Virus record (IMG/VR): IMGVR_UViG_3300048583_000179
Location: 1 to 63,447 of that record
Strand: one strand, 5' to 3'
From: a virus
Lineage: Duplodnaviria > Caudoviricetes
DNA: 63,447 bases
How positions within the stretch are numbered: the stretch's first letter is position 1; every line of letters starts with the position of its first letter. The notes beneath the pieces are model-generated. The model did not search any database, was not told the DNA's origin, and was given only the letters and a program-made list of their open reading frames with translations. Positions 6,899 through 50,729 of the stretch are shown here, piece by piece. A program made the translations under genes and the position numbers.

Positions 6899-6969
6899 CT
6901 GCCCCCCTTGGATTCGAACCAAGATTAACGGATCCAAAGTCCGCTGTCCTGCCATTGGACGAGGGGGCA
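6899..6969 (-). tRNA. tRNA-Gln(UUG)
   Basis: TGCCCCCTCGTCCAATGGCAGGACAGCGGACTTTGGATCCGTTAATCTTGGTTCGAATCCAAGGGGGGCAG folds as a cloverleaf; anticodon TTG; followed by TCA rather than CCA. Confidence 0.92.
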
Positions 6970-11818: not shown

Positions 11819-12051
11819 AGAGGGGTAACTGGGAGTACTGTAAAGGGTTACGATGCGTATTGGAGATAGGTACAGTGATAATGCTCTACCGATAATGGGG
11901 TAATAACACTGAAGGACCGCGAGCGGGATCAGGGTTCGTAGTGTTGTTATATCAGTGTCTAGAACGTATATTAGGTCGCAGTTATCGGGACGGCCCGGGC
12001 ATCGCCGCGAGGTGAAGACGACCTTGACCTTGCACACACGTAGAGGTAACA

Positions 12052-12468
12052 ATGCGTGAGCATGCCATTTTGGCACGGTATGCCAAGCAGGCAGCCGACC
12101 TGCCAATCCTGTTGCACCGGATAGAGAACCGAGTTCACAAGGGAACACCCGACTACCTCTGGACTTCTCAGGGGTTCACAGCGTTCCTTGAAATGAAGAG
12201 CTACGATACGGGTCACTGGGTGTCACCCGAGCAGGCGATCTTCATGAGAAAGTGGACTGAAGCAGGAGGGCATGCCGGAGTATTGGCAAGCGGGAGAAGT
12301 CTGGAGTGGGACTACTACCCTGCCTTGGCCGACCACAGTTGGGTAAAGAAGATCCAAGATCGCAAAATCGCTCCAGCCTTCAGCTTTCCGGTCTTCAACT
12401 ACTCGGCTCTTCTCCAGATTATCGCTCTTCACCGTGAGCTCGTTCCTACAATCTCTGGGTCTCCCTAA
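12052..12468 (+). CDS. VRR-NUC / PD-(D/E)XK nuclease (resolvase-like)
   Basis: RIENRVHKGTPD...AFLEMK...SPEQAIF..KW..AGG. Confidence 0.8.
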   Translation: MREHAILARYAKQAADLPILLHRIENRVHKGTPDYLWTSQGFTAFLEMKSYDTGHWVSPEQAIFMRKWTEAGGHAGVLASGRSLEWDYYPALADHSWVKKIQDRKIAPAFSFPVFNYSALLQIIALHRELVPTISGSP

Positions 12469-12580
12469 TCAGGTCTCCCCAATCAACTCCGAGAAGACGA
12501 CTCCAAGACGCGTAACCGCGTTCCAAATCTGGATTTCTCGTAGTACAGGTTGGGGAAGAATTGAACTCGCCTAGGGGAAT

Positions 12581-12604
12581 GAAACAGGGGGCCGAAGCCC
12601 CCTG
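12581..12604 (-). terminator. Intrinsic terminator after the 12625-13023 gene
   Basis: CAGGGGGC-TTCG-GCCCCCTG-TTTC on the minus strand. Confidence 0.75.
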
Positions 12605-12624
12605 CGTCATCCACCCCTTTGTCC

Positions 12625-13023
12625 TCAGGCCGGAGTGGCAGCCTCCACCGCCTTGGCCTTCGCGGCAGCCGCCGCCTCGCGCCGCTCCGCGAGGATGGCC
12701 GCGCAGCCGGGGCACCACGCCTCAGCCGCCTCGTGGCCCGGGATCGCCCCGCCCGGCGCGTAGGCCGCGTCCTTGGCCTCCTTCCGGCTGTTGAAGTGGG
12801 CGACAGTGCCGTGCGCCTCGCAGATGTTGACGAACGTGGTGCCCGGCGCGATGGGGCGGTAGCTGTTGATGCGAACGCCCGTGCTGCGGTTGACGCGCGA
12901 CCGGAACCTGTTGTGCGAGCCGCACGCCTCGGGGTCGGTGAGGACCCGCTCGGCGGGCGCGACGGTGGTCACCGGGGTCTCGGTGGTGGTTTCCGTCGCG
13001 GTGGTCTTCTGCTTCTTCGACAT
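12625..13023 (-). CDS. Zn-finger-like early protein, normally encoded paralog of 16294-16761
   Basis: Thr-rich N-tail, VNICEAHG...YAPGG...AWCPGCA; highly GC3-biased codons; own promoter and terminator. Confidence 0.8.
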   Translation of the reverse strand: MSKKQKTTATETTTETPVTTVAPAERVLTDPEACGSHNRFRSRVNRSTGVRINSYRPIAPGTTFVNICEAHGTVAHFNSRKEAKDAAYAPGGAIPGHEAAEAWCPGCAAILAERREAAAAAKAKAVEAATPA

Positions 13024-13078
13024 AGTGTACCCCCCCTGTTAGTGTGAGCCGCCCAGCGTCGTGCTGTAGCGTACACCA

Positions 13079-13107
13079 ATAATACTTCAACGCCACGTCG
13101 GACGCAA
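13079..13107 (-). promoter_or_regulatory. sigma70-like promoter TTGCGT-N17-TATTAT
   Basis: Near consensus; upstream of CTAACAGGGGGGGTAC leader. Confidence 0.75.
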
Positions 13108-13386
13108 TACCCGTTGAGGTCTTGTTACAGTTTGCCCCGGACTAAGTCTGCCCTCCACTTCTAGCAATCTCCGCGGGTGCGTGTTCTTATAATCGCTGCG
13201 GGCTCGCGCTCATATTGTCGCCTCTTCCTCGTGCTCTAGACTTCTCCTTCTAGATTTCTCACCCGGTGGCTCCGGCCAGCCCGAGTGCGGGGAGAACGAG
13301 ATAACGACAAGGCCCGACCGAGACCGAGAAAGGGCTAACAGGCTACGCCGAAGTGAGAAAGTGCTACGCTGATGAATACTGGGGGC

Positions 13387-13415
13387 TGGCGTGACGAATG
13401 GGTGGGGGCTATATT
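13387..13415 (+). promoter_or_regulatory. sigma70-like promoter TGGCGT-N17-TATATT
   Basis: Shares CTGGCGTGACGA...GCTATATT with the 43313-43341 promoter; followed by GTGCGC hairpin and leader. Confidence 0.7.
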
Positions 13416-13458
13416 GGGGGGTGCGCACCAACGCGCACCACACTAACAGGGGGTAGGT

Positions 13459-13824
13459 ATGTACGTGCCAACCTTGCAAAACAACGCCGTGCCGTGGCAG
13501 GTGCAGGTAGTGGCCATGGTGCCCAACAGCACCCCCGTTGCCCTACTGGGCAACTTGCAGCATGCCATGTATGCTGCCGCTGCCCCGTGGCACGGTAGCA
13601 TGGTGGCCAGTGTGGGCAACGCCACGGGGGAAAATGGGTGGTTGGAAGTTGCGTTTACCGCCCACATGCACCCCGCCTACATGCTGGTGGACAATGCGCA
13701 AGCGGTTACCCCCCGGCTAGTGCAACAGGGCGGGGAAATACTGGCGCAGTGGGTGGGGCACCTACATGCCATGCTGCCGGGGGCCGTGCTGTACCAAGCC
13801 AAGTTGGAAAACCCCAACTACTAG
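13459..13824 (+). CDS. Hypothetical immediate-early protein encoded in TC-free DNA
   Basis: CTAACAGGGGGT leader; zero TC and only 5 GA, all starting Asp/Glu codons. Confidence 0.8.
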   Translation: MYVPTLQNNAVPWQVQVVAMVPNSTPVALLGNLQHAMYAAAAPWHGSMVASVGNATGENGWLEVAFTAHMHPAYMLVDNAQAVTPRLVQQGGEILAQWVGHLHAMLPGAVLYQAKLENPNY

Positions 13825-13871
13825 GGGTAACCGGGTGGGGGGTAACCCCCACCCACCATACAGGGGGTACA

Positions 13872-14171
13872 ATGGAAGAAGCAACAGGGTGGTTGGTCTC
13901 AGTTACCATGCCGTACAGCCTAACTGAAGACAGGCACGTACAGGCTCTTCAAACCCTCACCAATTTCACTTCGCACATGCCAGACTTCTCCGAGGGAGAC
14001 GGGGGCACAAGCAGCGAAGAAGGGCGGGGCATGGTGTACGTGGAAGAAGTGTACAGCACCAGTCTCGGCCACGCCATGCAGTACCTCCAGCTCGCCCTGT
14101 CTCTGGGGGCGTACTGCGGGGATGTGGTGCCAGCCCGTATCGACGAAGAAGGGATACCCGTGGAGATGTAG
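13872..14171 (+). CDS. Small acidic early protein
   Basis: ATG after CATACAGGGGGTAC; MEEATGW...; no Lys, many Asp/Glu. Confidence 0.75.
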   Translation: MEEATGWLVSVTMPYSLTEDRHVQALQTLTNFTSHMPDFSEGDGGTSSEEGRGMVYVEEVYSTSLGHAMQYLQLALSLGAYCGDVVPARIDEEGIPVEM

Positions 14172-14276
14172 CGGGGGCGGGGCGAGAGCTCTCGCCCCGC
14201 CCCTTAGTAGGTGGGTACGAGAAAGGGCGATTGTTCTCTGGAGATGACCACTCCCCATCAAGACTTCTCAAGCCAC

Positions 14277-14305
14277 TTGCGTGGCGACTCAACGGGTGCT
14301 AGCTT
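14277..14305 (+). promoter_or_regulatory. sigma70-like promoter TTGCGT-N17-TAGCTT
   Basis: Repeated family; spacer contains GACTCAA. Confidence 0.7.
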
Positions 14306-14349
14306 ACAGTGTAGGGTAGTACAGCGATTCCAACCTAATAGGGGGTACC

Positions 14350-14628
14350 ATGCGCGAACCGGCCTACCTGTACCTGCAACTCTCGCCCAAGCCGGGCACC
14401 ACCGCAGAAGAAATTATTGCCTACTGGCAGCGGTTGGATTCCCTCGCGGTTACCATGTGCGGCGAAGGTGCGCAGCAGCACATGGCCAATTGGACGAACC
14501 ACGGCTACCTTGATTTTTGGGTGGCCCACCCCAACAGCGATACTTTGGGCCGGTTGAAAGCGGCATGGTTGGCCGTGCCCGCACCCGGCGAAACCGGGGC
14601 AGTAGTAGACGAAGGCGAAGGCGACTAA
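14350..14628 (+). CDS. Small acidic early protein
   Basis: CTAATAGGGGGTAC leader; own promoter. Confidence 0.75.
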   Translation: MREPAYLYLQLSPKPGTTAEEIIAYWQRLDSLAVTMCGEGAQQHMANWTNHGYLDFWVAHPNSDTLGRLKAAWLAVPAPGETGAVVDEGEGD

Positions 14629-14724
14629 TAGCAAACACCGGGGCGGCAGTTCTCGCCCCGGTAGGTGCCCACAGGGCGAGAAGTCTAGACCCCATCAGGC
14701 CCGATCGCGACTTCTCCGAGCCCC

Positions 14725-14753
14725 TTGTGTGCGGACTCAACGCGAGGTATTAT
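14725..14753 (+). promoter_or_regulatory. sigma70-like promoter TTGTGT-N17-TATTAT
   Basis: Repeated family; spacer contains GACTCAA. Confidence 0.7.
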
Positions 14754-14797
14754 ACAGGGTAGGCAATAGGCAACATCCTCACCTAACAGGGGGCACC

Positions 14798-15076
14798 ATG
14801 CCAGTCATCACTTTACCACAGGCCAAGTACACAACGTTCTACTTGGACAACGCAAGAGATTACACGTTGGACGAGTTTGCCCGTGTGGCCGCAGAGCACG
14901 AGATCCTGTGCGGCTACCTGCCGTGGGCCACGCCCGACGAGGACTTGGGCACCGTGGGAGAGTACTGGTTCCTCACGTTTACCAAGGCCCAACAGGCAGT
15001 GGTGGACGGGATGAACGGGTACCCCAGTGTCCTCGACTGGGTGACGGACGAGGGACCGTTTGACCTAAACATGTAG
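14798..15076 (+). CDS. Small acidic, aromatic-rich early protein
   Basis: Start re-called after CTAACAGGGGGC; MPVITLPQAKY... Confidence 0.75.
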   Translation: MPVITLPQAKYTTFYLDNARDYTLDEFARVAAEHEILCGYLPWATPDEDLGTVGEYWFLTFTKAQQAVVDGMNGYPSVLDWVTDEGPFDLNM

Positions 15077-15229
15077 GACTCGTGGGCGGGTGGGGGCTCG
15101 TGCCCTCGCCTCGCCGGTGTGTTCTTCAGAGAAAGGGTGACTGTGAGCTCCTGCCCTGAGCTCCTGTTCAAGACTTCTCGCCCCTGTGCTCCGGCGAAGA
15201 GCGCCGACTCACGCCGGCGCTGCTGACTC

Positions 15230-15394
15230 TTACTGCCGCCTCTTCGCCCGCTCTACCTGCCGACGGAGGTTGCGGAGGGTGGGGCTGACGTGATCCGACG
15301 GAGGCATGCGCAGTGCCCAGAAGACCATGCCGTAGTACAGGATGACTGCGAGCACGATGCCGAGCACCACGCGAATGTTGATGTCGTTGACCAT
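15230..15394 (-). CDS. Small single-TM protein (54 aa, not in ORF track)
   Basis: MVNDINIRVVLGIVLAVILYYGMVFWALR...; CTAACAGGAG leader. Confidence 0.65.
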   Translation of the reverse strand: MVNDINIRVVLGIVLAVILYYGMVFWALRMPPSDHVSPTLRNLRRQVERAKRRQ

Positions 15395-15447
15395 GGGGTG
15401 GATCTCCTGTTAGTGGTGGGGGGCTTGCGCCCCCCGGTTGATGGCGA

Positions 15448-15762
15448 CTACTGCGGGCCGTAGAAGCCGCGCAGCACGAGGTCCTGGTACCGCAGGGTGT
15501 ACGGCAGCTGAACGAGCTGGGTAATGGGACCGGTGATCCCCTTGTACGGGCGCACCCACAGGGTCTCACCGAGCAGTTCGTTGCCCCGGTATTCCTGCAG
15601 CGACACCCACAGCCCGTGACCGGGGTAGGTTTCGTCGCCGCTGAACCCCGCCACGCCCACCCAGTTCGCGCCCGCATGCACGGTGGTAATGCCCGTCATC
15701 TTGAACGCGGTGCGGGCTTCCTCGTCGGCTGCCAACAGCCTTGCCACCTTCACCTGTGCCAT
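15448..15762 (-). CDS. Hypothetical early protein
   Basis: CTAACAGGGGGTAC leader; own promoter. Confidence 0.75.
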   Translation of the reverse strand: MAQVKVARLLAADEEARTAFKMTGITTVHAGANWVGVAGFSGDETYPGHGLWVSLQEYRGNELLGETLWVRPYKGITGPITQLVQLPYTLRYQDLVLRGFYGPQ

Positions 15763-15803
15763 ACCGTACCCCCTGTTAGAGCGGCCCTTATTGGCCGCAC
15801 CTA

Positions 15804-15832
15804 AGTATACCTCGCATTGAGTCGTCGCGCCA
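15804..15832 (-). promoter_or_regulatory. sigma70-like promoter TGGCGC-N17-TATACT
   Basis: Repeated family; spacer contains GACTCAA; GCGGCC hairpin follows. Confidence 0.7.
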
Positions 15833-16098
15833 GTAGGCAGTTATCCTCCTGCAATCGCCCCTCCACGAAGCTCAACATCTCGGGTCAGGCGGTGACGACA
15901 GCCGGATGCGTGTCCTGCAATCTCTGCTCGGCCGAGCTCAAATCTAGATGTCTCGCTCCGGCGACATCGGGATCGGTCTCGGTCACACTATCTCGCCCGG
16001 TGGCGCTACAATCGCTGGACTCCATCGTTCAATTCCTCGTCATCTAACTCTCGCGTTCTCCCCTGTGGCGCGGGCGCAACACCCTGCTGTTGGGCGCA

Positions 16099-16185
16099 CG
16101 CCACATGTGGCGTGCCCGCTACGGTGCCAGGGCCACATGTGGCGCGGGTGCAACAAGCGGGTGTTGGGCGCACGCCACATGTGGC
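16099..16185. repeat. Three copies of the palindrome GCCACATGTGGC
   Basis: 16100-16111, 16132-16143, 16174-16185; copies 1 and 3 lie in a 24-bp direct repeat. Confidence 0.9.
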
Positions 16186-16206
16186 ACGCACGCACACCAC
16201 GGGGCA

Positions 16207-16278
16207 TAGCAAGGCCCGTGCCCCCTTGCGGGCACGGGCCTTGCTACCTGCCGCCCCCCGCCCCTTGCGGCGGGGGGC
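16207..16278 (-). terminator. Two tandem GC-rich hairpins (GCAAGG loops) downstream of 16294-16761
   Basis: 17-bp stem at 16207-16246 and 10-bp stem at 16253-16278; no U-tract. Confidence 0.55.
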
Positions 16279-16293
16279 TTTGCTACCGGGCTG

Positions 16294-16761
16294 CTAGGCC
16301 AGTGGTACGGCCCCGTGGGCTAGGGGGTTGGTGGCCCCTGCCGTGGCGGGGTTGGTGGCCACCACATGCGCTGCGCACCCCGCACACCATGCGGCGGGCG
16401 CGCCCGGTGCCTTGCCACTGGGGCCGCCCGGCACATACACCCCCTGCTTGGCGGTGCCCCGCGTAAGGTACCCCACGGCGTACCCGTGGGTGCCGCACAC
16501 GTTTACCCACAGGGGGCTGCCACCAAACGGGCGCAACATGTAAATGGTGGCGCCCGTTTGCTGGCACTTGCGCACCGGGCGGGCAGTGGCGGGCATGCCC
16601 TTGCCCGTGGCCAGTGCGGCGGCAACCGTGGCCAACTGGGTAGCCGTGGGGGTGCTTGTGGTGGCCGTGGGGGCGGTTGCCGCCACTGGGGCCGGGGTTG
16701 CCACTGGGGTGGCCGTGGGGGCGGCAGGGGCCGCCGTGGGGGTGCTGCGCTGCTTGGCCAT
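16294..16761 (-). CDS. Asp/Glu-free Zn-finger-like immediate-early protein
   Basis: 155 aa with no D or E; VNVCGTHG...YVPGG...AWCAGCA; own promoter and CTAATAGGTAGGT leader. Confidence 0.82.
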   Translation of the reverse strand: MAKQRSTPTAAPAAPTATPVATPAPVAATAPTATTSTPTATQLATVAAALATGKGMPATARPVRKCQQTGATIYMLRPFGGSPLWVNVCGTHGYAVGYLTRGTAKQGVYVPGGPSGKAPGAPAAWCAGCAAHVVATNPATAGATNPLAHGAVPLA

Positions 16762-16803
16762 GTGTACCTACCTATTAGGGCGGGCGGCATTGCCCGCACC
16801 CCC

Positions 16804-16831
16804 AAGTTAACCCATTTGCAACACTACGCAA
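16804..16831 (-). promoter_or_regulatory. sigma70-like promoter TTGCGT-N16-TAACTT
   Basis: Repeated family; lies inside the TC/GA-free island. Confidence 0.6.
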
Positions 16832-17031
16832 GGGGTGCGGCGGCACCCCCCAGTTACCCCACCCCCCACCCCCAAAAACGCGGCCCGCCCGCCCGCTGCC
16901 AGTCAGACCCAGCCCATGCGCCGATTTGAAAAATCCAACCCCAAAGCCCGCATGACGATGTTCATTGGTCTATAAAGATAAACGGGAGCCCCAGAATCAG
17001 GGCTCCCCGATTTTCTACGAGAGTTTAGGTA

Positions 17032-17289
17032 CTACATTCGTGAGGCGAGCCAGACATTGTACAAGGCCCGAGCGATTCCGGTCACCAGTGCGTAGCCGAC
17101 AGTTAGGCCCGCACCGAGCACTACCGATATCGTAAAGAGCGCGAGGTTCGAGGCAACCACGGACGGCTTCCCCGCATCCGACAAAGTGCGAGCCTTCTTG
17201 ATAAGGTCTTGAAACTCCGTGTCGTTCATGTGTCGCTCCACGATGTGAAGGTGCCCCTGCGCATCAATGCGATAGCTATTCAGCTGCAT
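17032..17289 (-). CDS. Small membrane protein
   Basis: MQLNSYRID... with C-terminal hydrophobic helix. Confidence 0.55.
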   Translation of the reverse strand: MQLNSYRIDAQGHLHIVERHMNDTEFQDLIKKARTLSDAGKPSVVASNLALFTISVVLGAGLTVGYALVTGIARALYNVWLASRM

Positions 17290-17491
17290 AGAGGATTTCC
17301 TGGAGGGCGCGGTGCAAGTCCCCCAGAAGCTCATCCCGCTTCACCGGGGCACGGTTCACTAGGACGAAGGCTTGCGTCCGCTGATGCTTGGGCAGTGCAG
17401 CGACGATCAAGGGAAGCATCAATGCAACGGCTTTCCCGAAGTCTTTTCCACCAAGCTTCTCAGCCTCTTTGTACCCCGCCATGAAATCCAA
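17276..17491 (-). CDS. Hypothetical protein
   Basis: 71-aa ORF divergent from terS. Confidence 0.5.
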   Translation of the reverse strand: MDFMAGYKEAEKLGGKDFGKAVALMLPLIVAALPKHQRTQAFVLVNRAPVKRDELLGDLHRALQEILYAAE

Positions 17492-17564
17492 GAGCTTCTC
17501 CGGTAAGGGTTACCCCCAATATAGGCGTCTTGCCTCACGAGCGACAGGGTGTGTAGTTTGTAGC

Positions 17565-18407
17565 ATGCCCGACGAAAGTTCACTTATGCCGTATGGTGGC
17601 GACAACCCCTGTGGGGCGCAGGTTCGTAGCAACGACGCGAAGTACGACGTCTGTATGATGCCCGCCGGATATCGCACGGATCACGTAGGCGAAGGTCGCT
17701 GCTACCTTCACGGGGGTAATGCCCTCGTAAAGAGTGGCAGGTACAGCAAGATCCTCAAGGTGGAACTGCAGGAAGCGATTGAGCGGCATGCGAATGATCC
17801 GGACGTGCTCAACATGGAGCCGGAACTCGCCACGGCGCGAGCGCTGTTCGAAGACTTCATTAATCGGTACGACGAGAACTCGGAAGCGCTCCTCGCATGG
17901 CATCTCAGCTATAAAGACGTCCAGATCACACCCGAGCGGCACAAGCTCATTCAGTTCATCATAAAAGCCGCCGAACAGCACTTCGCGGACCTCGCAGGTC
18001 AAGGCGAGGAGGTCGAGGAGTGGAAAAAGGTGTGGCTGAAGGAAGCCAAGACGCTCGCGTACAAAATCGGCGAAAGTTTGTCGGAGAACCGCAAGCCTCC
18101 ATACATCATGGACATCGCCGACGGGTACAAGTTCTTGGCCGAAATCACCAAGATCGTCGAAAGGATTGAAAAGGTACGGGCGCAGAACGCCATTAGTCGA
18201 CGGAACTTCTTGCGGGTTATGAGCGAAATGGGCCGCGTCACCAACACGGTACTCGACGTCGCGGGCGGCTCCCTGCATGCGTTTGACGCCGACGGAAATC
18301 CTATTACGGTGTACGATTCTGAAGGTCGGCAGGTCAACTTCGTCGAAGTCTTCGAACGAGCGAAGGCTCGTATCCAGGATCAATGGCTGACGATCCGCGT
18401 CGAGTAA
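17565..18407 (+). CDS. Terminase small subunit (HGG Zn-motif type)
   Basis: PCGA...CMMPAGYRTDHVGEGRCYLHGG...SGRYSK; directly upstream of TerL; start re-called at ATG 17565. Confidence 0.7.
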   Translation: MPDESSLMPYGGDNPCGAQVRSNDAKYDVCMMPAGYRTDHVGEGRCYLHGGNALVKSGRYSKILKVELQEAIERHANDPDVLNMEPELATARALFEDFINRYDENSEALLAWHLSYKDVQITPERHKLIQFIIKAAEQHFADLAGQGEEVEEWKKVWLKEAKTLAYKIGESLSENRKPPYIMDIADGYKFLAEITKIVERIEKVRAQNAISRRNFLRVMSEMGRVTNTVLDVAGGSLHAFDADGNPITVYDSEGRQVNFVEVFERAKARIQDQWLTIRVE

Positions 18408-18709
18408 TGGGCCTCCCCGAACGGGTTAGCATCAATAAGAACAGCCCGTTCTATTTGCACGACATCCACATGATGTGGATCTATTTGAACGACGTGTTGG
18501 TGTCGGGGGTAGTCGAAGCCAATCGGCCGATGGGGTGGCTCATCAAGTACGAAACCGACGATCAAAATAGGTTGGTGCGCGACGCGAAGGGCAACCCCTG
18601 CCTCCGTCTCCTGCGGGGGAGGGTAGAGTTCAAGGTCAAGGTCTTCGCGCACGATCATCCAAAGGTATTCTTTAGTGACTACGCTCAAGGATCTACTAGG
18701 CAAGAATAA
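18407..18709 (+). CDS. Hypothetical protein
   Basis: ATG overlaps the terS stop. Confidence 0.6.
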   Translation: MGLPERVSINKNSPFYLHDIHMMWIYLNDVLVSGVVEANRPMGWLIKYETDDQNRLVRDAKGNPCLRLLRGRVEFKVKVFAHDHPKVFFSDYAQGSTRQE

Positions 18710-20234
18710 GCTTGGTAGTGAAAAGACGATGGTCGAGGGCGTGGCCGAGGCAATGCGCCAAGTTCGGTCACCCGGTCGTACGGATGGCGATCCAGGGGCC
18801 GACAGACCGCTCACGTTCATTGAGTTCGTCAATAAAGTGAATCCTCGGTTCGTGTGGCACAAGCACAACATCAAACTCGCCAACGTATTGCAGAAGGCAA
18901 TTGATGGGGGGTTCGGTCCACGGGCGCGCATTATGATCTGCATGCCGCCCCGTCATGGTAAGACGGAGGAAGTCAGTAAGCTTTTCGCCGGGTATTGGCT
19001 CTATCGGTACCCCGACGAGTGGGTGGGCCTCAGCACCTATGTCGCTGAGCTCAGCGCGGCGATCTCCAGCACGGCACAGGAATACTACGTCAAGGCGGAC
19101 GGCAAGCTGGACGAAAGTCATACCGCCTCTCGGCACTGGCAGACCTCATCTGGTGGCGGCATGTGGGCGGCGGGCGTCGGCGGTCCAATCACTGGTAAGG
19201 GCTTCAATCTTGGCATTATCGACGACCCGATCAAAAACGCCGAGGAAAGCAACTCGGAAACGATCGGTCAGCGCAATCAGGAATGGTATCAGTCAACGTT
19301 CTACACGCGCGAAGCGTTTAGCCATACCTGTATCATCGTGATGAATACCCGGTGGCCGGGGCCGGGCGACATCATTGGCTGGCTGTTCGAAAACGAGGAG
19401 CAAGCCATTATCGACGAAATGGTGGACGATGCCGAAAAGTGGCATTGTGTCATTCTACCTGCCATTTACGATCCGGACCAGTTCCCGACCCTACCAAGCA
19501 CCTGTACGCTAGAGCCCGACTGGCGTAAGCCGGGCGAGGCGCTCTTTCCCGAGCGGTACGGCACCGATCGGTTGCGCAAGATCAAACGGACACAGGGTAC
19601 GTATTACTGGGCCTCACTGTATCAGCAGAACCCGACGGACCGCGAAGGTCACCGCTTCAAGCGCATCTGGTTTCAAAACAAGTTTGTGGATCGGGCACCC
19701 GAAAGCTTCAGTAAGGATATCGCGTACTTTGACCACGGGGGCGGCGAAAACCGCGACAACGATCCCACGGTTGGCGTGCGCATGCGGCGGGTGAGTAGCA
19801 CCGAGTATTATATTGTAGACGTCGTTCGCAGAAAGCTGTCGCCAGAAAAGCGGGATCAGTTCATTCGGCAGACGGCCGAGCGGTGGGGCAAGAAGGTCAC
19901 CTACTGGGGGATGCAGGAAGGTGGCAGTGCGGGTAAGGATCAGGCGAGAACCTTCCGTGCGCTGCTTGAAGGGTTTGAGGTTTATACGGAACGGGTCACT
20001 GGGGAAAAGGATATCCGTGGCGATCCGTTCCAAGCGGCGTGCGAGGCAGGGTTTATTCATCTTGTGCGCGGGCCGTGGAATACTGAGTTCCTTGATGAGC
20101 TGGTAACCTTGTGGACAGGAAAACACGACGATCAGGGGGAGTGCGCGGCTGGAGCATACAACAAGCTGTCATTCCTATATCGCCGTAAGCGGAAGCCGCC
20201 CGGTAGTCGTAGCTACTCAACACTTGGGCACTGA
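18675..20234 (+). CDS. terL: Terminase large subunit
   Basis: Walker A MPPRHGKT, GIIDDPIKN, MNTRW, YQQNP, C-terminal GKHDDQ nuclease motif. Confidence 0.95.
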   Translation: MTTLKDLLGKNKLGSEKTMVEGVAEAMRQVRSPGRTDGDPGADRPLTFIEFVNKVNPRFVWHKHNIKLANVLQKAIDGGFGPRARIMICMPPRHGKTEEVSKLFAGYWLYRYPDEWVGLSTYVAELSAAISSTAQEYYVKADGKLDESHTASRHWQTSSGGGMWAAGVGGPITGKGFNLGIIDDPIKNAEESNSETIGQRNQEWYQSTFYTREAFSHTCIIVMNTRWPGPGDIIGWLFENEEQAIIDEMVDDAEKWHCVILPAIYDPDQFPTLPSTCTLEPDWRKPGEALFPERYGTDRLRKIKRTQGTYYWASLYQQNPTDREGHRFKRIWFQNKFVDRAPESFSKDIAYFDHGGGENRDNDPTVGVRMRRVSSTEYYIVDVVRRKLSPEKRDQFIRQTAERWGKKVTYWGMQEGGSAGKDQARTFRALLEGFEVYTERVTGEKDIRGDPFQAACEAGFIHLVRGPWNTEFLDELVTLWTGKHDDQGECAAGAYNKLSFLYRRKRKPPGSRSYSTLGH

Positions 20235-20245
20235 GGTTTTCGCCG

Positions 20246-20917
20246 ATGCGACATGGGAGCCGTATCCCGCACTGGGACACGCGAAATAGCGAGTATGATC
20301 TAGTAAGGCATGCGCCGGATCTAGCGCATCGCCCCCTAAGCGAACTCAAAGGGGTTCGCAAATATCAACAGCGGTGGTGGGGCCATCAAGTGAACGACAG
20401 TATGTCTATGGCATACGCGCTGCTTCACTTGATGAGCATGGACAACCCGCATCACCCTCCGTTTGGCCCGGCCCTGAACGTCAGCATTCTACACAGCAAG
20501 CTCATGTACGAGGATCGGATGCAGGGGCGCATCCACCTCAACGGGGCCACGCTGCTCTCGGCGTGCCGGGTAGCGCAGCGGTTGGACTGGGTGGGCGATT
20601 ACTACTGGGCGACCGACACACAGGCCGCTTTGAACTACCTGCACGACGTCGGCCCCTTGCTGTGCAGCACGAAGTGGTACGACTCACTGTTTGATCGGGA
20701 TCAGCATAGCTACTGCGAAATCCAGCCCGGCGCAACCGAAGTCGCGGGCCTCGTGTACTGCGTTAGCGGTATCTACCCCCGAACGGGGCTAGTCCGTCTT
20801 GCGCAGACGTGGGGCGATGGTTACTATTTCATGTCTTTTAATACGTTTGATCAGCTCGTAAGAGACGGTGGGGAAATCGCACTTCTGCGTGGCCTACCCA
20901 CAAGAGGTCAAGAATGA
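20246..20917 (+). CDS. Papain-like (C1) peptidase-fold protein, apparently inactive
   Basis: GAT..SAC, YYWA, GPLL...KWYDSLF, QTWG pattern with catalytic C/H/N replaced. Confidence 0.55.
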   Translation: MRHGSRIPHWDTRNSEYDLVRHAPDLAHRPLSELKGVRKYQQRWWGHQVNDSMSMAYALLHLMSMDNPHHPPFGPALNVSILHSKLMYEDRMQGRIHLNGATLLSACRVAQRLDWVGDYYWATDTQAALNYLHDVGPLLCSTKWYDSLFDRDQHSYCEIQPGATEVAGLVYCVSGIYPRTGLVRLAQTWGDGYYFMSFNTFDQLVRDGGEIALLRGLPTRGQE

Positions 20918-22737
20918 CTGCACCGTTTTTCAATTACAAGCAGCCGGGCGAAGTCAGCATCGCCATGGCGCAAACGCTGATCGGCGAGCATCTCTGGGAC
21001 GGGGCCAAGGTCAACGCGAAGTTCATGGAAGGCGACCATTGGCAAGAAGGGGTAGGCTGGATTGGCCCCATGCCAAACGCGACAGAGGAAGGGTACGCGG
21101 CCACCAAGGCGTTGATTGAAAAAGGGTTCATTAGCAAGAATGCCATCAAGGAAGTAGTTGATCGACACGTCAACGGCCTTCTAGGGTTGCCCCCCGAGTG
21201 GGGGTTTACTCCCATCAAGGCGTTGAAGGAAAACGAAGAGATCAGCCCCGCAGACCAAGCCCTCATTGACGAGGCCGAAGCGGCAGTCACTCAGTGGTGG
21301 GACAAGCGAGACGCCCACAATCTAATCAAGGACGTTGCGACCAAAGCCCTTTGGGCAGGTCGTGGACTGAGCCGCGTCTATGTTCCGAGTGGCCTGTTGG
21401 TTGACGTTGTGGTGGCTGCGCCGGACGGGCAAGCGACTACGATTCGGGGTGTGGCCGTCCCAAATGGGGATGTGAATAAGGCACTGGAGCTCATTTGGAT
21501 TGAGTCGCCTAAGCCCGATGTGAGCACCGTGTACGAGGTCTTCGAAACAAAAGAAGAAATCGGCATGGTGATTACCGCCCCAAGCGCGACCAGCACGGTC
21601 AACACGACGCTGTCCACGCAACAGCTAGAGCTCACCTACCTTGAAAAGCAAGCCATCGCTGACAAGGTTATGACGGTGCTCGCGCTGAAGCGGCTGGAGC
21701 AACAGGCCGAGAGCATCGTAAAGATGGACTTGGGCGGGCGCATCACGATGTTTGAAATGAAGCGCGAGCCGCTCATTACCGAGCAGGTTCAGTCCATGCA
21801 GCGGGCCATCAACCTCGCCATCAGCGTGGTGCCCCGCACGATCGTCACTGGAGGCTTCTTGGAGCGCATCATTCTCAACGGGCAAATGCCCGGCGAGTGG
21901 GTTGAGGATGCCAAGACCAAGGAGAAGCGGTTTGTGCCCGGAAAGCTCAGCATGGGCGCGGGCACGACGAATTTTATTTCGGGCGTTGAGCACGAGGACC
22001 AGAGCACTGGCACCACGAAGCTTGCCGACCCCGAAGTGGTTATTCGTGAGCCGACCGACCCGTCGTTCGCCGTCAAGGGTGAGCGGGCACTGTACCGCGA
22101 TCTGCTTGAGGAAGTGGACCAAGTTCACATCCTGATGAGTGCGGATGCGGTGGCAAGCGGTGTAGCCCGCGAACAAGCTCGCGTTGACTTTATGCTGAGC
22201 CTGAACAAGACTCGGCCGCAAGTTGAGGTCATGGGCCGCTGGATGCTTGAAACCGTGTTGGCCATGGCCGAGGTCTTCGCTGGCACGCCGGGCAAATACA
22301 CGAGCAAGCTCAAGGCATACTTCCGCTGCAAGCCGGACTTCGGGCCGATTAGTAGCGACGAGCGCAACCAGACGGTGCAGGAAGTTGAAAAAGGAATGAA
22401 GAGCCGTGAGCGCGGTATGAACGAGCTCGGGGTTGACGACGTTGACGCTGAGCTTGCAAAGATCAACAGCCAACCGGATGCCCAAGTTGACTTGGTCAAG
22501 CGACAGGGAGAAGCACTCAAGGCGCTCGTTGACGCTACCGTGCCCTTGGAAATCGCAATGGAGCTCGTTGGGTTTGATCCGGAAGTGGTTCAGAAGGCTG
22601 CCGCTAAGGCAGAAGAAGCCAAGCAAAAGGAGCTAGATGCTCAGGTTGAGATGGCCGAAGCGCAAGGGGCCATTGATACTGATAAGGCAGTGGCAACGGC
22701 CAAGGCGAAGCCCGCCGTTCCGCCTCCTGCTATGTAG
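20914..22737 (+). CDS. Portal protein
   Basis: 607 aa, between terminase and scaffold; GDHWQ..GWIGP, SKNAIKEVVDRH, SGVAREQAR motifs. Confidence 0.8.
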   Translation: MTAPFFNYKQPGEVSIAMAQTLIGEHLWDGAKVNAKFMEGDHWQEGVGWIGPMPNATEEGYAATKALIEKGFISKNAIKEVVDRHVNGLLGLPPEWGFTPIKALKENEEISPADQALIDEAEAAVTQWWDKRDAHNLIKDVATKALWAGRGLSRVYVPSGLLVDVVVAAPDGQATTIRGVAVPNGDVNKALELIWIESPKPDVSTVYEVFETKEEIGMVITAPSATSTVNTTLSTQQLELTYLEKQAIADKVMTVLALKRLEQQAESIVKMDLGGRITMFEMKREPLITEQVQSMQRAINLAISVVPRTIVTGGFLERIILNGQMPGEWVEDAKTKEKRFVPGKLSMGAGTTNFISGVEHEDQSTGTTKLADPEVVIREPTDPSFAVKGERALYRDLLEEVDQVHILMSADAVASGVAREQARVDFMLSLNKTRPQVEVMGRWMLETVLAMAEVFAGTPGKYTSKLKAYFRCKPDFGPISSDERNQTVQEVEKGMKSRERGMNELGVDDVDAELAKINSQPDAQVDLVKRQGEALKALVDATVPLEIAMELVGFDPEVVQKAAAKAEEAKQKELDAQVEMAEAQGAIDTDKAVATAKAKPAVPPPAM

Positions 22738-22740
22738 GTC

Positions 22741-22769
22741 TTGCGCATTATCCGCAGTCCTGTTATAGT
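22741..22769 (+). promoter_or_regulatory. sigma70-like promoter TTGCGC-N17-TATAGT for the head genes
   Basis: Near consensus in the intergenic gap. Confidence 0.65.
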
Positions 22770-22795
22770 TTCGTCTACTTCTTGGGAGAACGTGT

Positions 22796-23560
22796 ATGCG
22801 ACTCTGGGTCAGCCGGTTTCTTGACAAGGACGCTACGGGTGGCGGCGGCAACGCCCCGTCGCTCAGCGATGAGGATCTTCAAAAGAAGATAGAAGCGATC
22901 ATCAATCGTCAAGGTGGTGGCGATCCAATGGCGGCTATCGGCATCCTGCTGAAGGACAATGCCGATGTGCGTGCCAAGAACCGTAAGCTGGCTGAAGAGC
23001 TGACTCAGGCCAAGCCCTTCATTGTCAACGCTGAGGACAGTAAGATTCTTACCGAGTTCAAGAAGCTTGGCAAGACGCTTGAGGAACTTCAGCGGGAGTC
23101 CACCGAGCTCACCACCTTGCGCGAAACTCAACAGCGTAGTACGTTTAAGGAGCTGGTGAGTACCGCTGCCAAGGCGCACGGCTGGAACTCTGAAGTGCTG
23201 GAAGACCAGATCACACTCCGTGGCATGCACGTGGAAATGAAGGATGTACATGTCAAGAACGGTGACAAGACTGAAGTGCGCCGTGTGCCCTATGTACGGC
23301 CGAAGAGCGATGCCTCTGCTCCGCTGCAAAGCGCAGAAGAGTGGGTGGCTACGCTTCCAAAGCCGTACCTTGACGCCCTCAAGGTAGGGACGCAGGACAC
23401 CGGTGAATCCGCGCAAGGCACGACCGTAGTAACGCAGTTCCCGTCCCAATCTTCGGCGGATCGGCAAGGCCAACCCCGACTGGTGGACAATCTACTCAAG
23501 ACGCAGTATGTCCCGCCCAAGGTGGGCATTACTGCGCCGACTGCCACTCAAGGAGCCTGA
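22796..23560 (+). CDS. Capsid scaffolding protein
   Basis: Coiled-coil protein between portal and capsid genes. Confidence 0.7.
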   Translation: MRLWVSRFLDKDATGGGGNAPSLSDEDLQKKIEAIINRQGGGDPMAAIGILLKDNADVRAKNRKLAEELTQAKPFIVNAEDSKILTEFKKLGKTLEELQRESTELTTLRETQQRSTFKELVSTAAKAHGWNSEVLEDQITLRGMHVEMKDVHVKNGDKTEVRRVPYVRPKSDASAPLQSAEEWVATLPKPYLDALKVGTQDTGESAQGTTVVTQFPSQSSADRQGQPRLVDNLLKTQYVPPKVGITAPTATQGA

Positions 23561-38376: not shown

Positions 38377-38565
38377 ATGTGGTATATTGCACAGTGGGCC
38401 GGGCAGCGTCCCTGTCGCCCCGAAGACATCTTTTGGTTTGATATCAAGCGGTACTGGGTTCATGCCGTGGGGCACTACTTCATTCCATGTGTAATAGCCG
38501 GGACAACCTTCTTCGCGTTGCACTGTACGCGCCAGTGGTGGCGCAACAGGCCCGGCCAGACGTAA
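38377..38565 (+). CDS. Small hypothetical membrane protein
   Basis: 62-aa ORF, Trp-rich. Confidence 0.35.
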   Translation: MWYIAQWAGQRPCRPEDIFWFDIKRYWVHAVGHYFIPCVIAGTTFFALHCTRQWWRNRPGQT

Positions 38566-38661
38566 ATCCAGCGTCGCTACCGACCCTCAGGGACACAAAC
38601 CCCATGGGGGTCGGGTTGTTTGGTGGGGGGCAAACGGCACGCGCCAGAGGGGCATTCGGCG

Positions 38662-38746
38662 TATTGGCCTATTGCCTATATAGGGTTACTATAACCGATC
38701 AAAAAGTTTTTTCCAAAAATGGTTCGGTAATAGGCCAATAGGGTAA
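38662..38746. repeat. AT-rich duplicated element, copy 2 (candidate replication origin)
   Basis: 30-bp identity to 11745-11774 plus similar flanks. Confidence 0.7.
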
Positions 38747-43502: not shown

Positions 43503-43901
43503 CTATTGGGTTTTATGAGCCCCAGTGGGGTCGTCATGCGGATCTCCCTCGTAGAGTGGGCTGACTTCTTCAAGAGGGAACGGATCTTGGATCGCGAGGA
43601 TGCCTTGCGCATATGCTTCTGCCTCAATCAAGATAAGGTAGCGTCGCAGGTCGCGAATGCTTTCAATGGCTGACTCCCCACCTTCGTCAACCCGTGCAAT
43701 AGCCTTGAACACGTCGTACCCGCATGCCTTGGCCTGTTCCTCAAGCCTGTCGGCCTTACGAATACTGACCATGAAGGCACCCGGCCCACCCCGCTTTTTC
43801 CAACTTGCACCATAGGCGATATCTTTGGCAAGGACGGCTTCCGCATCAGCCTCTGCCACCATGCGGATGAAGTCGCGGTAGCTTGTGTCGTTGTTGTCCA
43901 C
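43503..43901 (-). CDS. Nucleotide-modification-associated MazG-like protein (Nmad1/DUF1599-like)
   Basis: KDIAYGASWKKRG...RKADRL...ESIRDLRRYLILIE; adjacent to the synthase. Confidence 0.7.
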   Translation of the reverse strand: MDNNDTSYRDFIRMVAEADAEAVLAKDIAYGASWKKRGGPGAFMVSIRKADRLEEQAKACGYDVFKAIARVDEGGESAIESIRDLRRYLILIEAEAYAQGILAIQDPFPLEEVSPLYEGDPHDDPTGAHKTQ

Positions 43902-45970: not shown

Positions 45971-46242
45971 ATACGAGGCTTTCTTTTAGGGGGCGTTCCA
46001 AGCTGTGTCAGCACTTCGGTCAGTACGGTCAACGCGTCTTTGTGCCGTACTCCATCAGCTACGAGGGCTTCAGTTTCCAGCCACTTTTGTTGAAACATGG
46101 CTGTCGGTATCTTAAAGAGTAGAGGCCGTACCGCATCCAAGCGAGCTTGATTGCACCGTAGACAGTTGTCCACGAGGCAATAGTCATCGCACAAGGCGTT
46201 ACGAAACGCCTCAAGGATTTGGGCCTCCAGGTCCTCTTTCAC
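45967..46242 (-). CDS. Hypothetical protein
   Basis: Coupled ORF inside the modification cluster. Confidence 0.55.
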   Translation of the reverse strand: MKEDLEAQILEAFRNALCDDYCLVDNCLRCNQARLDAVRPLLFKIPTAMFQQKWLETEALVADGVRHKDALTVLTEVLTQLGTPPKRKPRI

Positions 46243-48628: not shown

Positions 48629-48779
48629 TGGGCTCTTTCTCCTTTGTGATGTAGCTGTCGTCGTCCAGTATGTCAGCCAACATACAGCCTGTGCTGCAAT
48701 GCTGAAAGCCTAGATAGGCTTCGATGACCTTGCCACAGGTGAGACAAATGTAGTCACCATCCTCATCGCGTTGCAACAT
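48615..48779 (-). CDS. Small Cys-rich protein
   Basis: CLTCGK...HCSTGC; GGGGT RBS. Confidence 0.45.
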   Translation of the reverse strand: MLQRDEDGDYICLTCGKVIEAYLGFQHCSTGCMLADILDDDSYITKEKEPNDAD

Positions 48780-48789
48780 CTGACCCCCA

Positions 48790-50726: not shown

Positions 50727-50729
50727 TGC

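Follow-up and report, generated by a model that had tools for sequence, protein, structure and literature searches.

Why would 844 consecutive base pairs of a phage genome contain neither TC nor GA? The question arose from an initial annotation of the window, by which we mean the whole analysed stretch of 63,447 nucleotides from a tailed virus (IMG/VR record IMGVR_UViG_3300048583_000179). An occurrence scan and direct reading bore out the reported absence: between 16060 and 16903 there is not one complete TC or GA on either strand, and the neighbouring occurrences start at 16059 and 16903. Given the base composition of this stretch (island 1 hereafter) 84.6 would be expected, i.e. ~85 rather than the ~100 initially claimed. 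Across the genome, 200 bp hold 23.4 on average (sd 5.1), chance alone would give a longest gap of ~76 bp, and the probability of one 844-bp gap anywhere in the genome is ~1e-42 at the genome density and ~1e-39 for a stretch with the composition of the island. For the nine remaining strand-symmetric dinucleotide classes the longest gaps were 48-283 bp, each near expectation. The purge of TC/GA is real, far beyond chance and unique to TC/GA among the dinucleotide classes.

The sharp edges and the abundance of TG/CA that had been noticed were both recovered. Directly outside the island there are 12-16 TC per 100 bp on the left and 13 TC+GA per 100 bp on the right, and inside it TG/CA occurs 145 times, with TG making up 62% of the thymine contexts versus 32% genome-wide. 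AA/TT occurs 47 times in the 844 bp. In the remaining 98% of the genome, replication and structural genes included, TC has its normal density; what looked like a third island (38487-38741) turned out to be ordinary intergenic DNA. The features of island 1 and its left flank are as follows.

15800-16059, no strand: flank to the left of island 1, with TC very frequent on the plus strand (GA-rich on the minus strand)
16060-16903, no strand: island 1, 844 bp without TC/GA on both strands, GC 72%
16064-16185, no strand: long imperfect palindrome of ~120 nt, formed from a 56-nt direct repeat, TC/GA-free, fold z -8.0 and -7.3
16207-16246, no strand: hairpin with a perfect 17-bp stem, just downstream of the island-1 stop codon
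16253-16278, no strand: second G+C hairpin, followed on the plus strand by CTTTGCT
16294-16761, minus strand: island-1 gene, 155 aa (from the ORF list), TC/GA absent in all codon phases
16843-16868, minus strand: putative promoter-like G-run motif TGGGGGGTGGGGTAACTGGGGGGTGC, then a short hairpin; the inferred promoter

The purge covers a whole transcription unit, as was first described: the 155-aa ORF, the two strong hairpins and the palindrome array are all present, the latter with three CCACATGTGG palindromes at 16101, 16133 and 16175. The core of the promoter-like motif, TAACTKGGGGGTGC, has a second copy at 16796-16809, and the hairpin at 16253-16278 is terminator-like for rightward transcripts. 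Three -10-like motifs (TCCTRCAATC) lie on the plus strand of the left flank, at 15847, 15913 and 16004. A sigma-70 scan recovered no consensus promoter in this island or in the second one described below, and no Rfam family was found across 12000-18000. Ordinary 4- and 6-bp palindromes persist in the islands; in island 1 these include ACATGT (four times), TGGCCA (six times) and TGCGCA (four times).

A second island, missed in the initial annotation, and a normally coded paralog of the island-1 gene are found at lower coordinates.

12625-13023, minus strand: paralog of the island-1 gene, 132 aa, 13 Asp/Glu, 43 TC+GA, GC ~73%
13397-13875, no strand: island 2 (partial), no TC on the plus strand, 6 GA, GC 62%
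13399-13424, plus strand: putative promoter-like motif, island-2 copy TGGGTGGGGGCTATATTGGGGGGTGC, an imperfect inverted repeat of 16843-16868
13459-13824, plus strand: island-2 gene, 121 aa, its 5 GA being exactly its 5 Asp/Glu codons (phase 1)

Island 2 contains a 234-bp TC/GA gap (13396 to 13630), and its plus strand lacks TC over 626 bp (13271 to 13897). The sixth GA, besides the five within the gene, lies at the right edge in the second codon of the next gene. Both islands are stand-alone cassettes with a common promoter-like motif; they lie 2.2 kb apart and face each other. Three of the four matches to this motif in the genome (at most 2 mismatches) fall in the two islands, the fourth, with 2 mismatches, being located at 19901. 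The designation of the island-1 gene as the only one immediately readable does not hold, as the second cassette is purged alike. Seven small genes of the region carry a GA-free ribosome-binding motif, cTAACAGGGGGTAc, versus GGAG-type sites in the late genes, and the translation-start motif of the island-1 ORF is the same as that of the neighbouring genes. Outside the window, the island-2 protein is represented on one other contig (1924 bp) by an identical 74-aa fragment.

To specify the level of the constraint, observed counts were compared with 5000 synonymous shuffles. The island-1 gene has 0 TC/GA versus 27.0 +/- 4.2 in the shuffles (minimum 13) and the island-2 gene 5 versus 27.5 +/- 3.7, and the non-coding parts of island 1 have 0 versus 23.0 and 0 versus 14.7 expected. 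Where synonymous codons exist, only the TC-free ones are used in the island-1 gene (Ser is AGY only, Ile is ATT only and Phe is TTT only), and none of its 38 codons that start with A is preceded by a codon ending in G, versus 10 of 36 for the paralog. Since all three codon phases, the codon junctions and the non-coding DNA are purged, the constraint is one on the nucleic acid, and for the same reason a codon-level or tRNA-level explanation was rejected. Each TC/GA site seems costly, and the cost seems to be weighed against protein need, considering that the GAs left in island 2 coincide with its Asp/Glu codons and that the island-1 protein has lost all Asp/Glu, of which its paralog has 13. The island-1 protein is basic (0 Asp/Glu, 10 Lys/Arg) and has diverged further than any other member of its family, with 29-36% identity to the others, but it keeps the Cys-His-Cys-Cys columns of the family. 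High GC as a product of TC>CC mutation was rejected, as the unpurged paralog is equally GC-rich.

The purge had been ascribed to thymidine modification, and the corresponding genes were searched for.

43901-44905, minus strand: thymidylate-synthase homolog, candidate dUMP hydroxymethylase (Pfam Thymidylat_synt, E 4e-17)
45026-45970, minus strand: HMUDK_hel / aGPT-Pplase1 homolog (Pfam PF18723, E 1.9e-48)
46239-46829, minus strand: P-loop kinase, putative 5-hmdU DNA kinase, homolog of M6 gp54

The thymidylate-synthase homolog is 40% identical to M6 gp58 over 336 aa, and the aGPT-Pplase1 homolog shows 45-48% identity to M6 gp55 and relatives; the literature searched held no statement on the function of aGPT-Pplase1. 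The kinase is 31% identical over 177 aa (E 9e-12) to M6 gp54, which is listed as a 5-hmdU DNA kinase in Table 1 of PMC8989533. Its score for Pfam HMUDK_HMUD1 (24 bits) is under the 27-bit cut-off, which makes it a distant member. With tblastn (E <= 0.01) no homolog of the aGPT-Pplase2 group transferase (queries M6 gp51 and Sonora gp039), of the PLP enzyme or of the rSAM enzyme was recovered in the window, and the neighbouring 262-aa ORF is unrelated to M6 gp51. A transferase that is very distant from, or non-homologous to, aGPT-Pplase2 may still be encoded. Of the 5-hmdU synthesis and kinase pathway recognised at first, the thymidylate-synthase-like enzyme, the kinase and the aGPT-Pplase1 homolog thus stand, but aGPT-Pplase2 was not found.

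Modification of this kind is reported to depend on the base that follows the thymine, in TG or TC context (PMC6449724, PMC13458397, PMC12191111), and the contexts given in the initial annotation are indeed in print in the first two of these. More explicitly, Flodman 2019 (PMC6449724) deduced TG/TC from resistance to restriction, and in a 2026 NAR paper (PMC13458397) TG ranks above TC; the M6 kinase is reported to act at TG and the F8 context is likewise reported as TG. To see which context the window itself points to, we compared the avoidance of 6-mer palindromes by thymine context. The observed/expected ratios in the window were 0.95 for palindromes containing TC, 0.76 for TG, 0.70 for other T and 0.20 for GC-only palindromes (41 observed versus 202 expected). 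The TC class differed from the GC-only class with p 5e-6 (Mann-Whitney) and from TG plus other T with p 0.026, a modest signal from small classes and without an unmodified control phage of the same host. In M6, TG was spared (0.80) and TC (0.04) and other T (0.14) were not; in F8 the ratios were 0.99 for TG versus 0.70 for TC. The window was the only one of five genomes in which the TC class was least avoided. Palindrome avoidance thus points, indirectly, to TC as a protected context in this phage. On the other hand TCGA is the most depleted tetranucleotide in the window (110 observed versus 253 expected), which could mean that TC sites are unprotected; a parallel depletion, of TGCA, is seen in M6 and Sonora. 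A Chi-like motif, GNTGGTGG, was not enriched (12 observed versus 12.0 expected). The initial claim that T in TC is modified therefore keeps the indirect support of the unavoided TC palindromes, but in other phages the experimental evidence is best for TG, which is enriched in island 1. Given this enrichment, an exemption from modification works only if the kinase of this phage is TC-specific.

A search for relatives yielded little. Blastn of 15001-23000 against phages gave only a 92-bp match, to a Streptomyces phage, a TerL search of IMG/VR gave no close locus, and the best TerL relatives are cyanophages at ~34% identity. A scan of genome contigs for relatives found nothing. No homolog of the island-1 protein was found by tblastn, in IMG/VR or in a search of 5.8 billion proteins, and its paralog family has nine representatives in 1.8 billion proteins, one being the window's own. 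Two loci encode further family members, L001 from IMG/VR and L002 from a metagenome, and neither has an island; L001, a ~30% complete fragment, has no HMUDK_hel match, but as control genomes likewise had none, this absence carries no information. An exact 16-mer of the island motif in four IMG/VR contigs proved to represent low-GC chance matches without islands, and two further exact-motif scans of IMG/VR gave no match. Scanning the modified phages M6, Sonora and F8 (51 of the 66 kb of F8) in the same way recovered no dinucleotide-free island, which counts against the proposed link with modification; a stretch of F8 free of AT and of AC/GT, considered as an analogue, is a low-complexity repeat coding for a coiled coil.

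The island proteins matched no family in Pfam, PHROGs or NCBIfam, and an Atlas search on their function gave no lead. The model of the island-1 protein has a mean pLDDT of 66.8 (best VIA Z 4.3) and no Foldseek match at E <= 0.001. The island-2 protein, modelled from a single sequence (pLDDT 74), is predicted to adopt a generic ferredoxin-like beta-alpha-beta-beta-alpha-beta fold and matched only such domains. No phage RNA polymerase was found in the window; a 1439-aa ORF has no family match, and language-model features suggest, as a lead only, that it is lectin/Laminin_G-like. The contig carries a 127-bp overlap between prefix and suffix, and is therefore a circular metagenome assembly whose ends need not be the physical ones, so that the first-ejected end proposed initially at island 1 stands as a conjecture. 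Island 1 had been placed just upstream of terS, but terS is itself weakly identified (PHROG E 0.0066), and a 100-aa gene and a terminator-like hairpin intervene.

Considering the above, we tentatively favour the explanation that the cassettes are locally exempt from a thymine modification in TC context, or from its consequences, which we regard as quite possible. Both islands would be self-contained early cassettes, each consisting of a promoter-like motif, a 5' hairpin, a GA-free ribosome-binding site, a small gene and 3' hairpins, from which selection would have removed the duplex step 5'-TC-3'/5'-GA-3'. Our proposal is that a post-replicative modification, begun by the diverged 5-hmdU DNA kinase, takes place at the thymine in TC or does most of its harm there, and that this modification carries a cost in the cassettes. 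A TC-free cassette would then be locally unmodified in virion DNA and could be used at times when modified positions do harm. The harm might lie in hindered polymerase passage or protein binding or, with equal standing, in attack by nucleases or glycosylases of the host that are directed at hypermodified thymine. Early-acting host nucleases against T-hypermodified phages, and small phage inhibitors of these nucleases, are described in PMC12191111, and PMC11550810 reports only moderate effects on transcription through such bases by T7 RNA polymerase. The initial proposal that modification impedes host RNA polymerase is unsupported: the replication and structural genes are TC-normal and no phage RNA polymerase was found, so that modification cannot stop host transcription outright. 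The proteins that could still be made under these circumstances would be the basic Cys-His-Cys-Cys protein, which has a normally coded twin, and the small ferredoxin-fold protein. Several observations weigh against an exemption. The homologs of aGPT-Pplase2, the PLP enzyme and the rSAM enzyme are missing, which makes the end product, or even a bulky modification, uncertain; the islands are absent from M6, Sonora and F8; and the kinase is distant from M6 gp54.

The distribution of the islands among these phages fits a host-specific rather than a modification-tied pressure, and a DNA-level constraint unrelated to phage modification has to be weighed, in which the ordinary TC/GA step is the target of some host or phage factor, under whose action the cassettes must stay intact or unmarked. 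Candidate factors are a TC-specific cytosine deaminase, a TC-specific ssDNA nuclease akin to T4 endonuclease IV and a DarT-type ADP-ribosyltransferase. That the purge is strand-symmetric, includes non-coding DNA and has the boundaries of the cassettes agrees with such a factor, and strongly transcribed units would expose single strands. The other 98% of the genome would nevertheless stay exposed, no TC/GA-specific nuclease or deaminase candidate was present among 59 ORFs scanned, and the mutational products are missing: AA/TT is not in excess and the GC content is that of the unpurged paralog. We consider this explanation, which includes the alternative offered initially of avoiding a GA/TC-recognising host factor, unlikely but still in play. 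Quite unlikely, in our estimate, is a constraint on RNA, whereby transcripts without UC/GA survive an endoribonuclease with a dinucleotide-level preference, such as a host abortive-infection RNase, a CRISPR-associated collateral RNase or a shut-off RNase of the phage, and the two proteins are still made. Cas13 orthologs are RNases with dinucleotide preferences, UC and GA among them. The purged zones do track transcription units, beginning ~25-70 bp ahead of the presumed start and ending shortly after the 3' hairpins, strong hairpins cap the presumed transcript ends, the GA-free cTAACAGGGGGTAc sites set the small genes apart from the late genes, and a purged copy beside a normal paralog would fit a back-up for a hostile state. 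An RNase would, however, require that two unrelated dinucleotides are avoided in one strand, whereas a constraint on DNA requires a single duplex step. Moreover, the purge extends over the 136-bp palindrome array past the hairpins and over the sequence that precedes the motif, five GAs are tolerated in island 2, and the hairpins are not followed by U-tracts on the strand of the gene, so that transcripts probably continue into GA-rich sequence.

A non-adaptive origin, by local hypermutation or from a donor of odd composition and followed by purifying selection on essential residues, would account for the sharp edges, for the divergence of the island-1 protein and for a composition rich in Ala, Thr, Pro and Gly, as TC>CC and GA>GG changes would yield. 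We know of no donor source with such a composition. The paralog with normal TC/GA is equally GC-rich, so that the high GC does not stem from the purge; the GC content of island 2 is only 62%, the regulatory and ribosome-binding motifs of the cassettes are shared with unpurged neighbours, and a mutational process would spare precisely the Asp/Glu codons only under selection of equal strength. We regard such an origin as very improbable. An assembly chimera, synthetic DNA or sequencing error might be suspected in a metagenome-style circular assembly with a 127-bp overlap, but is scarcely credible: the island-1 ORF is intact, is paralogous to a neighbour, keeps the conserved Cys/His columns and has the local ribosome-binding motif, which make an assembly or low-complexity artefact unlikely, and there are two separate islands with the same motif, the second of which has its protein recorded in part, as the identical 74-aa piece, on another contig.

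Various known systems resemble the islands in part. The phages with a 5-hmdU kinase pathway (M6, ViI, PhiW-14, SH-Ab 15599 and F8) have, like this phage, homologs of the thymidylate-synthase-like enzyme, the P-loop kinase and aGPT-Pplase1. This phage differs from them in lacking an aGPT-Pplase2 homolog, in having islands, which M6, Sonora and F8 do not, and in the context implied, which is TC here and TG where documented. Restriction-site avoidance is similar in that selection removes words and leaves a DNA-level activity without targets, and its classical form occurs in this genome as well. The islands concern a dinucleotide, however, rather than a site of at least 4 bp; the avoidance is absolute but local (2% of the genome) and the protein sequence is altered. 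Eukaryotic viruses show dinucleotide depletion, of CpG in relation to ZAP and of TC in relation to APOBEC3, which is partial and genome-wide, and APOBEC leaves mutational products. The likeness is the shaping of viral sequence at dinucleotide level, as by a host activity directed at nucleic acid, with TC a known target, but here the depletion is total, local and in a bacteriophage, and the footprint of an APOBEC/DddA-like deaminase is missing, as there is no TT/AA excess and no shift to A+T. Early genes at the leading end of a genome, such as T7 gene 0.3 (Ocr) and the first-step-transfer region of T5, neutralise host defence before the remainder of the genome becomes accessible. The cassettes share with these the small genes with (putative) promoters of their own, an early-looking region beside packaging genes and the idea of a genome part kept safe until its product has acted, but they face each other at 2.2 kb in a circular assembly. 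Finally, mRNAs that lack a motif escape endoribonucleases, as do ACA-less mRNAs in the case of MazF, and GGAG is the corresponding word for T4 RegB. The transcript without a short word and the GA-free ribosome-binding motif of the local small genes are alike, but the islands lack two dinucleotides, on both strands and probably in untranscribed DNA too, and no RNase was identified in this analysis. In the literature searched we found no close precedent for such islands and no description of a phage-host activity with dinucleotide-level specificity that strips a protein of its acidic residues.

If the link with modification fails, the 844-bp unit still demands a dinucleotide-specific activity strong enough to strip all acidic residues from a protein. 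The palindrome-class test, which recovers the reported TG context of M6 from sequence alone, could cheaply predict modification contexts in uncultured phages. As for the phage itself, it is conceivable, although we hold this with reserve, that it writes 'do not modify here' by deleting the dinucleotide recognised by its kinase from two immediate-early cassettes, to the point of recasting one protein without Asp or Glu; the cassettes would be unmodified safe-harbour genes in a hypermodified genome. If true, hypermodification would be TC-specific in this lineage and would carry a large per-site cost for first-round expression or survival, for instance because host enzymes hunt modified thymine, and the two cassette proteins would be the counter-measure. 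If the exemption of the cassettes is real, the context in which a DNA hypermodification system acts would be readable from sequence by itself, the cost of hypermodification would be large enough to reshape proteins, and the two small proteins would be candidate first-line anti-defence or takeover factors.

We found that successive TC/GA start positions lie at 16059 and 16903, leaving 844 bases (16060-16903, island 1) without TC or GA, where about 85 would be expected from the base composition of the island itself. The TC/GA-free island described in the initial annotation thus holds, and its sharp edges are borne out by the counts on both sides (12-16 TC per 100 bp directly left, normal density directly right). 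Across the genome the mean TC/GA density is 23.4 per 200 bp and the expected longest gap is about 76 bp; the longest gaps of the other nine strand-symmetric dinucleotide classes are all near expectation. A partial counterpart (island 2, 13397-13875) contains zero TC and a handful of GA on the + strand, on which a TC-free run of 626 bp covers 13271-13897. TG is enriched in both islands. Both are also adjoined on the left by tracts of strong strand asymmetry, which on the + strand are TC-rich and then GA-rich for island 2 (13200-13396) and TC-rich for island 1 (15800-16059), and which have words in common that include GACCGAGACCGA.

Each island contains one small gene, and that of island 1 has a normally coded relative nearby:

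13459-13824, + strand, island 2 gene (121 aa)
16294-16761, - strand, island 1 gene (155 aa)
12625-13023, - strand, paralog of the island 1 gene

In the island 1 gene TC and GA are absent from every codon phase, A-starting codons follow G-ending codons in 0 of 38 cases (paralog: 10 of 36), and Ser is encoded by AGY only, Ile by ATT only and Phe by TTT only. When the protein was kept fixed and codons were drawn from genome usage (5000 draws), 27.0 +/- 4.2 TC/GA were expected against none observed, the lowest draw having 13; the corresponding values were 5 observed and 27.5 +/- 3.7 expected for the island 2 gene, and 43 and 41.4 for the paralog. The non-coding parts of island 1 are equally purged (0 versus 23.0 and 0 versus 14.7 expected). 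Given that the purge extends over all phases, codon junctions and non-coding DNA, and given the synonymous draws, a cause at the level of codons, tRNAs or amino acids is excluded. The constraint acts at the nucleic-acid level, with a strength sufficient to alter proteins. The five GAs remaining in the island 2 gene coincide exactly with its five Asp/Glu codons, and the island 1 protein has no Asp/Glu versus 13 in the paralog, to which it is 40% identical over 70 residues (E 4e-12). Its family is tiny (9 representatives among 1.8 billion proteins), with invariant columns of Cys, His, Cys and Cys and a basic stretch resembling RxRxNRQTG, and every other member does contain Asp/Glu. Family, fold and function searches gave no match for either island protein; the island 2 protein is modelled with a generic ferredoxin-like fold.

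The following elements accompany the two genes:

13399-13424, + strand, G-run motif at the start of island 2 (TGGGTGGGGGCTATATTGGGGGGTGC)
16843-16868, - strand, G-run motif at the start of island 1 (TGGGGGGTGGGGTAACTGGGGGGTGC)
downstream of the island 1 stop codon, hairpin with a perfect 17-bp stem
downstream of the island 1 stop codon, second G+C hairpin
16064-16185, long imperfect palindrome (about 120 nt) with three CCACATGTGG sites

The island 1 gene, both hairpins and the palindrome array all lie inside the purged zone, as the initial annotation had it. The structures 3' of the gene have fold z-scores of -8.0 and -7.3; the palindrome has no match in Rfam, and candidate roles for it are an array of operators, an element resembling an origin, or a structured RNA. 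The two G-run copies, both with a short hairpin behind them, constitute an imperfect inverted repeat flanking 3.47 kb of small genes in convergent arrangement, and three of the four genome matches to their core TAACTKGGGGGTGC (at most 2 mismatches) fall in the islands. Seven small genes within 12.6-16.8 kb have a GA-free translation-start region in common (cTAACAGGGGGTAc-ATG; cTAATAGGTAGGTAcac-ATG in island 1), and GGAG-type Shine-Dalgarno sites belong to the structural/late and replication genes. Left of island 1, three -10-like motifs (TCCTRCAATC) on the + strand are directed into the island. A simple sigma-70 scan showed no consensus promoter at the island elements, which may act as promoters, operators or terminators. 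The + strand operon after island 2 (13850-14800) consists of cassettes that repeat every 448-478 bp and share a start region, a 45-nt repeat and a palindromic hairpin (CGGGGCGAGAGCTCTCGCCCCG); the proteins that they encode are highly acidic and show no sequence relationship to one another.

The contig represents a complete phage (63,447 bp). Bases 1-127 are exactly identical to 63321-63447, indicating a circular, assembler-style metagenome-type contig of 63,320 unique bases in which position 1 is arbitrary. It carries a single tRNA-Gln (anticodon TTG, 6899-6969, - strand), a T4 endonuclease-V-type pyrimidine-dimer glycosylase (689-1138, -), an AEP (TOTE-type) primase domain (50730-52286, -), two UvrD-like helicases (48790-50271, -; 54702-56210, -) and an SNF2 helicase (38818-40524, +). 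An ORF of 1439 aa (56303-60622, -), placed among the replication genes and not in the tail module, was unmatched by sequence in Pfam, PHROG and PDB; its language-model neighbours, viral Laminin_G_3/lectin-like proteins (score 0.92-0.93), offer a lead only. Three genes relate to thymine modification:

43901-44905, thymidylate-synthase homolog, 40% identical to gp58 of Pseudomonas phage M6
45026-45970, HMUDK_hel/aGPT-Pplase1 homolog, 45-48% identical to M6 gp55 and relatives
46239-46829, P-loop kinase, 31% identical to M6 gp54

Together these homologs make a thymine-modification pathway plausible. According to the available part of PMC8989533, M6 gp54 is the 5-hmdU DNA kinase and gp51 (aGPT-Pplase2) the group transferase. 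The 5-hmdU synthesis and DNA-kinase pathway claimed earlier is matched by synthase, Pplase1 and kinase homologs and not by a transferase, as tblastn of the window gave no homolog of M6 gp51, gp52 or gp53. No kinase in the phage collection was more than about 35% identical to that of the window. The TG/TC contexts named in the initial annotation are indeed a published inference, drawn from restriction resistance of M6, ViI and PhiW-14 in the part of Flodman et al. 2019 available (PMC6449724), which also mentions TG as modified by the M6 kinase. With TG above TC in phage 15599 (2026 paper, PMC13458397, in part) and a TG motif in F8 (2025 preprint, PMC12191111, in part), TG is the best-documented context in these sources.

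To compare contexts, the 64 palindromic 6-mers were classed by the thymine contexts that they contain.

Observed/Markov-expected counts of palindromic 6-mers in five genomes (F8: 51 of 66 kb, 77% of genome; phiKMV: unmodified control)
M6: TC 0.04; TG 0.80; TC+TG 0.94; other T 0.14; GC-only 0.59
F8: TC 0.70; TG 0.99; TC+TG 0.98; other T 0.87; GC-only 0.75
Sonora: TC 0.60; TG 0.75; TC+TG 0.80; other T 0.89; GC-only 1.00
phiKMV: TC 0.32; TG 0.60; TC+TG 0.68; other T 0.46; GC-only 0.52
Window: TC 0.95; TG 0.76; TC+TG 0.96; other T 0.70; GC-only 0.20

In M6, TC-containing palindromes number 10 versus 225 expected and TG-containing ones 161 versus 201 (p 6e-4 between classes), which matches the prediction for TG sites protected by modification and constitutes a signature, from sequence alone, of the TG context reported; F8 deviates in the same direction, more weakly. 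Among the five genomes the TC class was least avoided in the window alone (TC versus TG plus other T, p 0.026; TC versus GC-only, p 5e-6), which lends modest, indirect support to TC as a protected context in this phage. GC-only palindromes are nearly absent from the window (GGGCCC 0 of 24 expected, GCCGGC 1 of 25, GGCGCC 2 of 20, CCCGGG 3 of 36), and its most depleted tetranucleotides are TCGA (110 observed versus 253 expected) followed by TGCA, which together suggests heavy restriction pressure on sites beyond the protection by thymine modification. The counterpart of TCGA in M6 and Sonora is TGCA (observed/expected 0.16 versus 0.73 in phiKMV), and the TCGA depletion may be read either as a parallel to theirs or as a caveat on the protection of TC.

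The scan of other phages proposed in the initial annotation gave no dinucleotide-free island in M6, Sonora, F8 (77% of genome) or phiKMV, where the lowest 400-bp stretches had 28-37 TC/GA or 21-36 CA/TG versus 0 here; phages with the kinase thus do not generally have such an island. Stretches of F8 ORF066 that are AT-free over at least 403 bp and AC/GT-free over at least 224 bp (48600-49000 of our F8 sequence L013, about 50600-51000 of the F8 record) were rejected as analogues, being low-complexity Glu/Lys/Ala-rich coding repeats. Known motif avoidance is kin to the purge, but the island differs by the locally absolute exclusion of a dinucleotide, of which no report for a phage was found in the literature searched.

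We favour a cause at the DNA level, because a single duplex step (TC:GA) is simpler than the two RNA dinucleotides that an RNase would have to make the phage avoid, and because the purge takes in probably untranscribed DNA; on both counts an RNA-level RNase seems quite unlikely. A DNA-level factor unrelated to thymine modification is considered unlikely. A non-adaptive origin of the islands is judged very improbable, and an artefact scarcely credible.

Among the candidates, only a link to the phage's own context-dependent thymine chemistry draws support from the window genome, in the form of the modification genes and the palindrome classes. Exemption of the cassettes from this modification is weakened by the TG enrichment in the islands, by the missing transferase and by the fate of the earlier proposal that modified T in TC obstructs host RNA polymerase: TC occurs in every other gene and no phage RNA polymerase was found in the window genome, so an absolute block of transcription is ruled out. 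In a softer version, attractive but unproven, every modified site would be costly, and heavily so only in the presence of a host enzyme that seeks out modified thymine; the available part of PMC12191111 describes host END nucleases with early action against T-hypermodified phages, and small phage inhibitors. Of the explanations weighed, we tentatively rank highest, though as somewhat less likely than not, that the islands are cassettes exempt from the phage's own context-dependent thymine modification.
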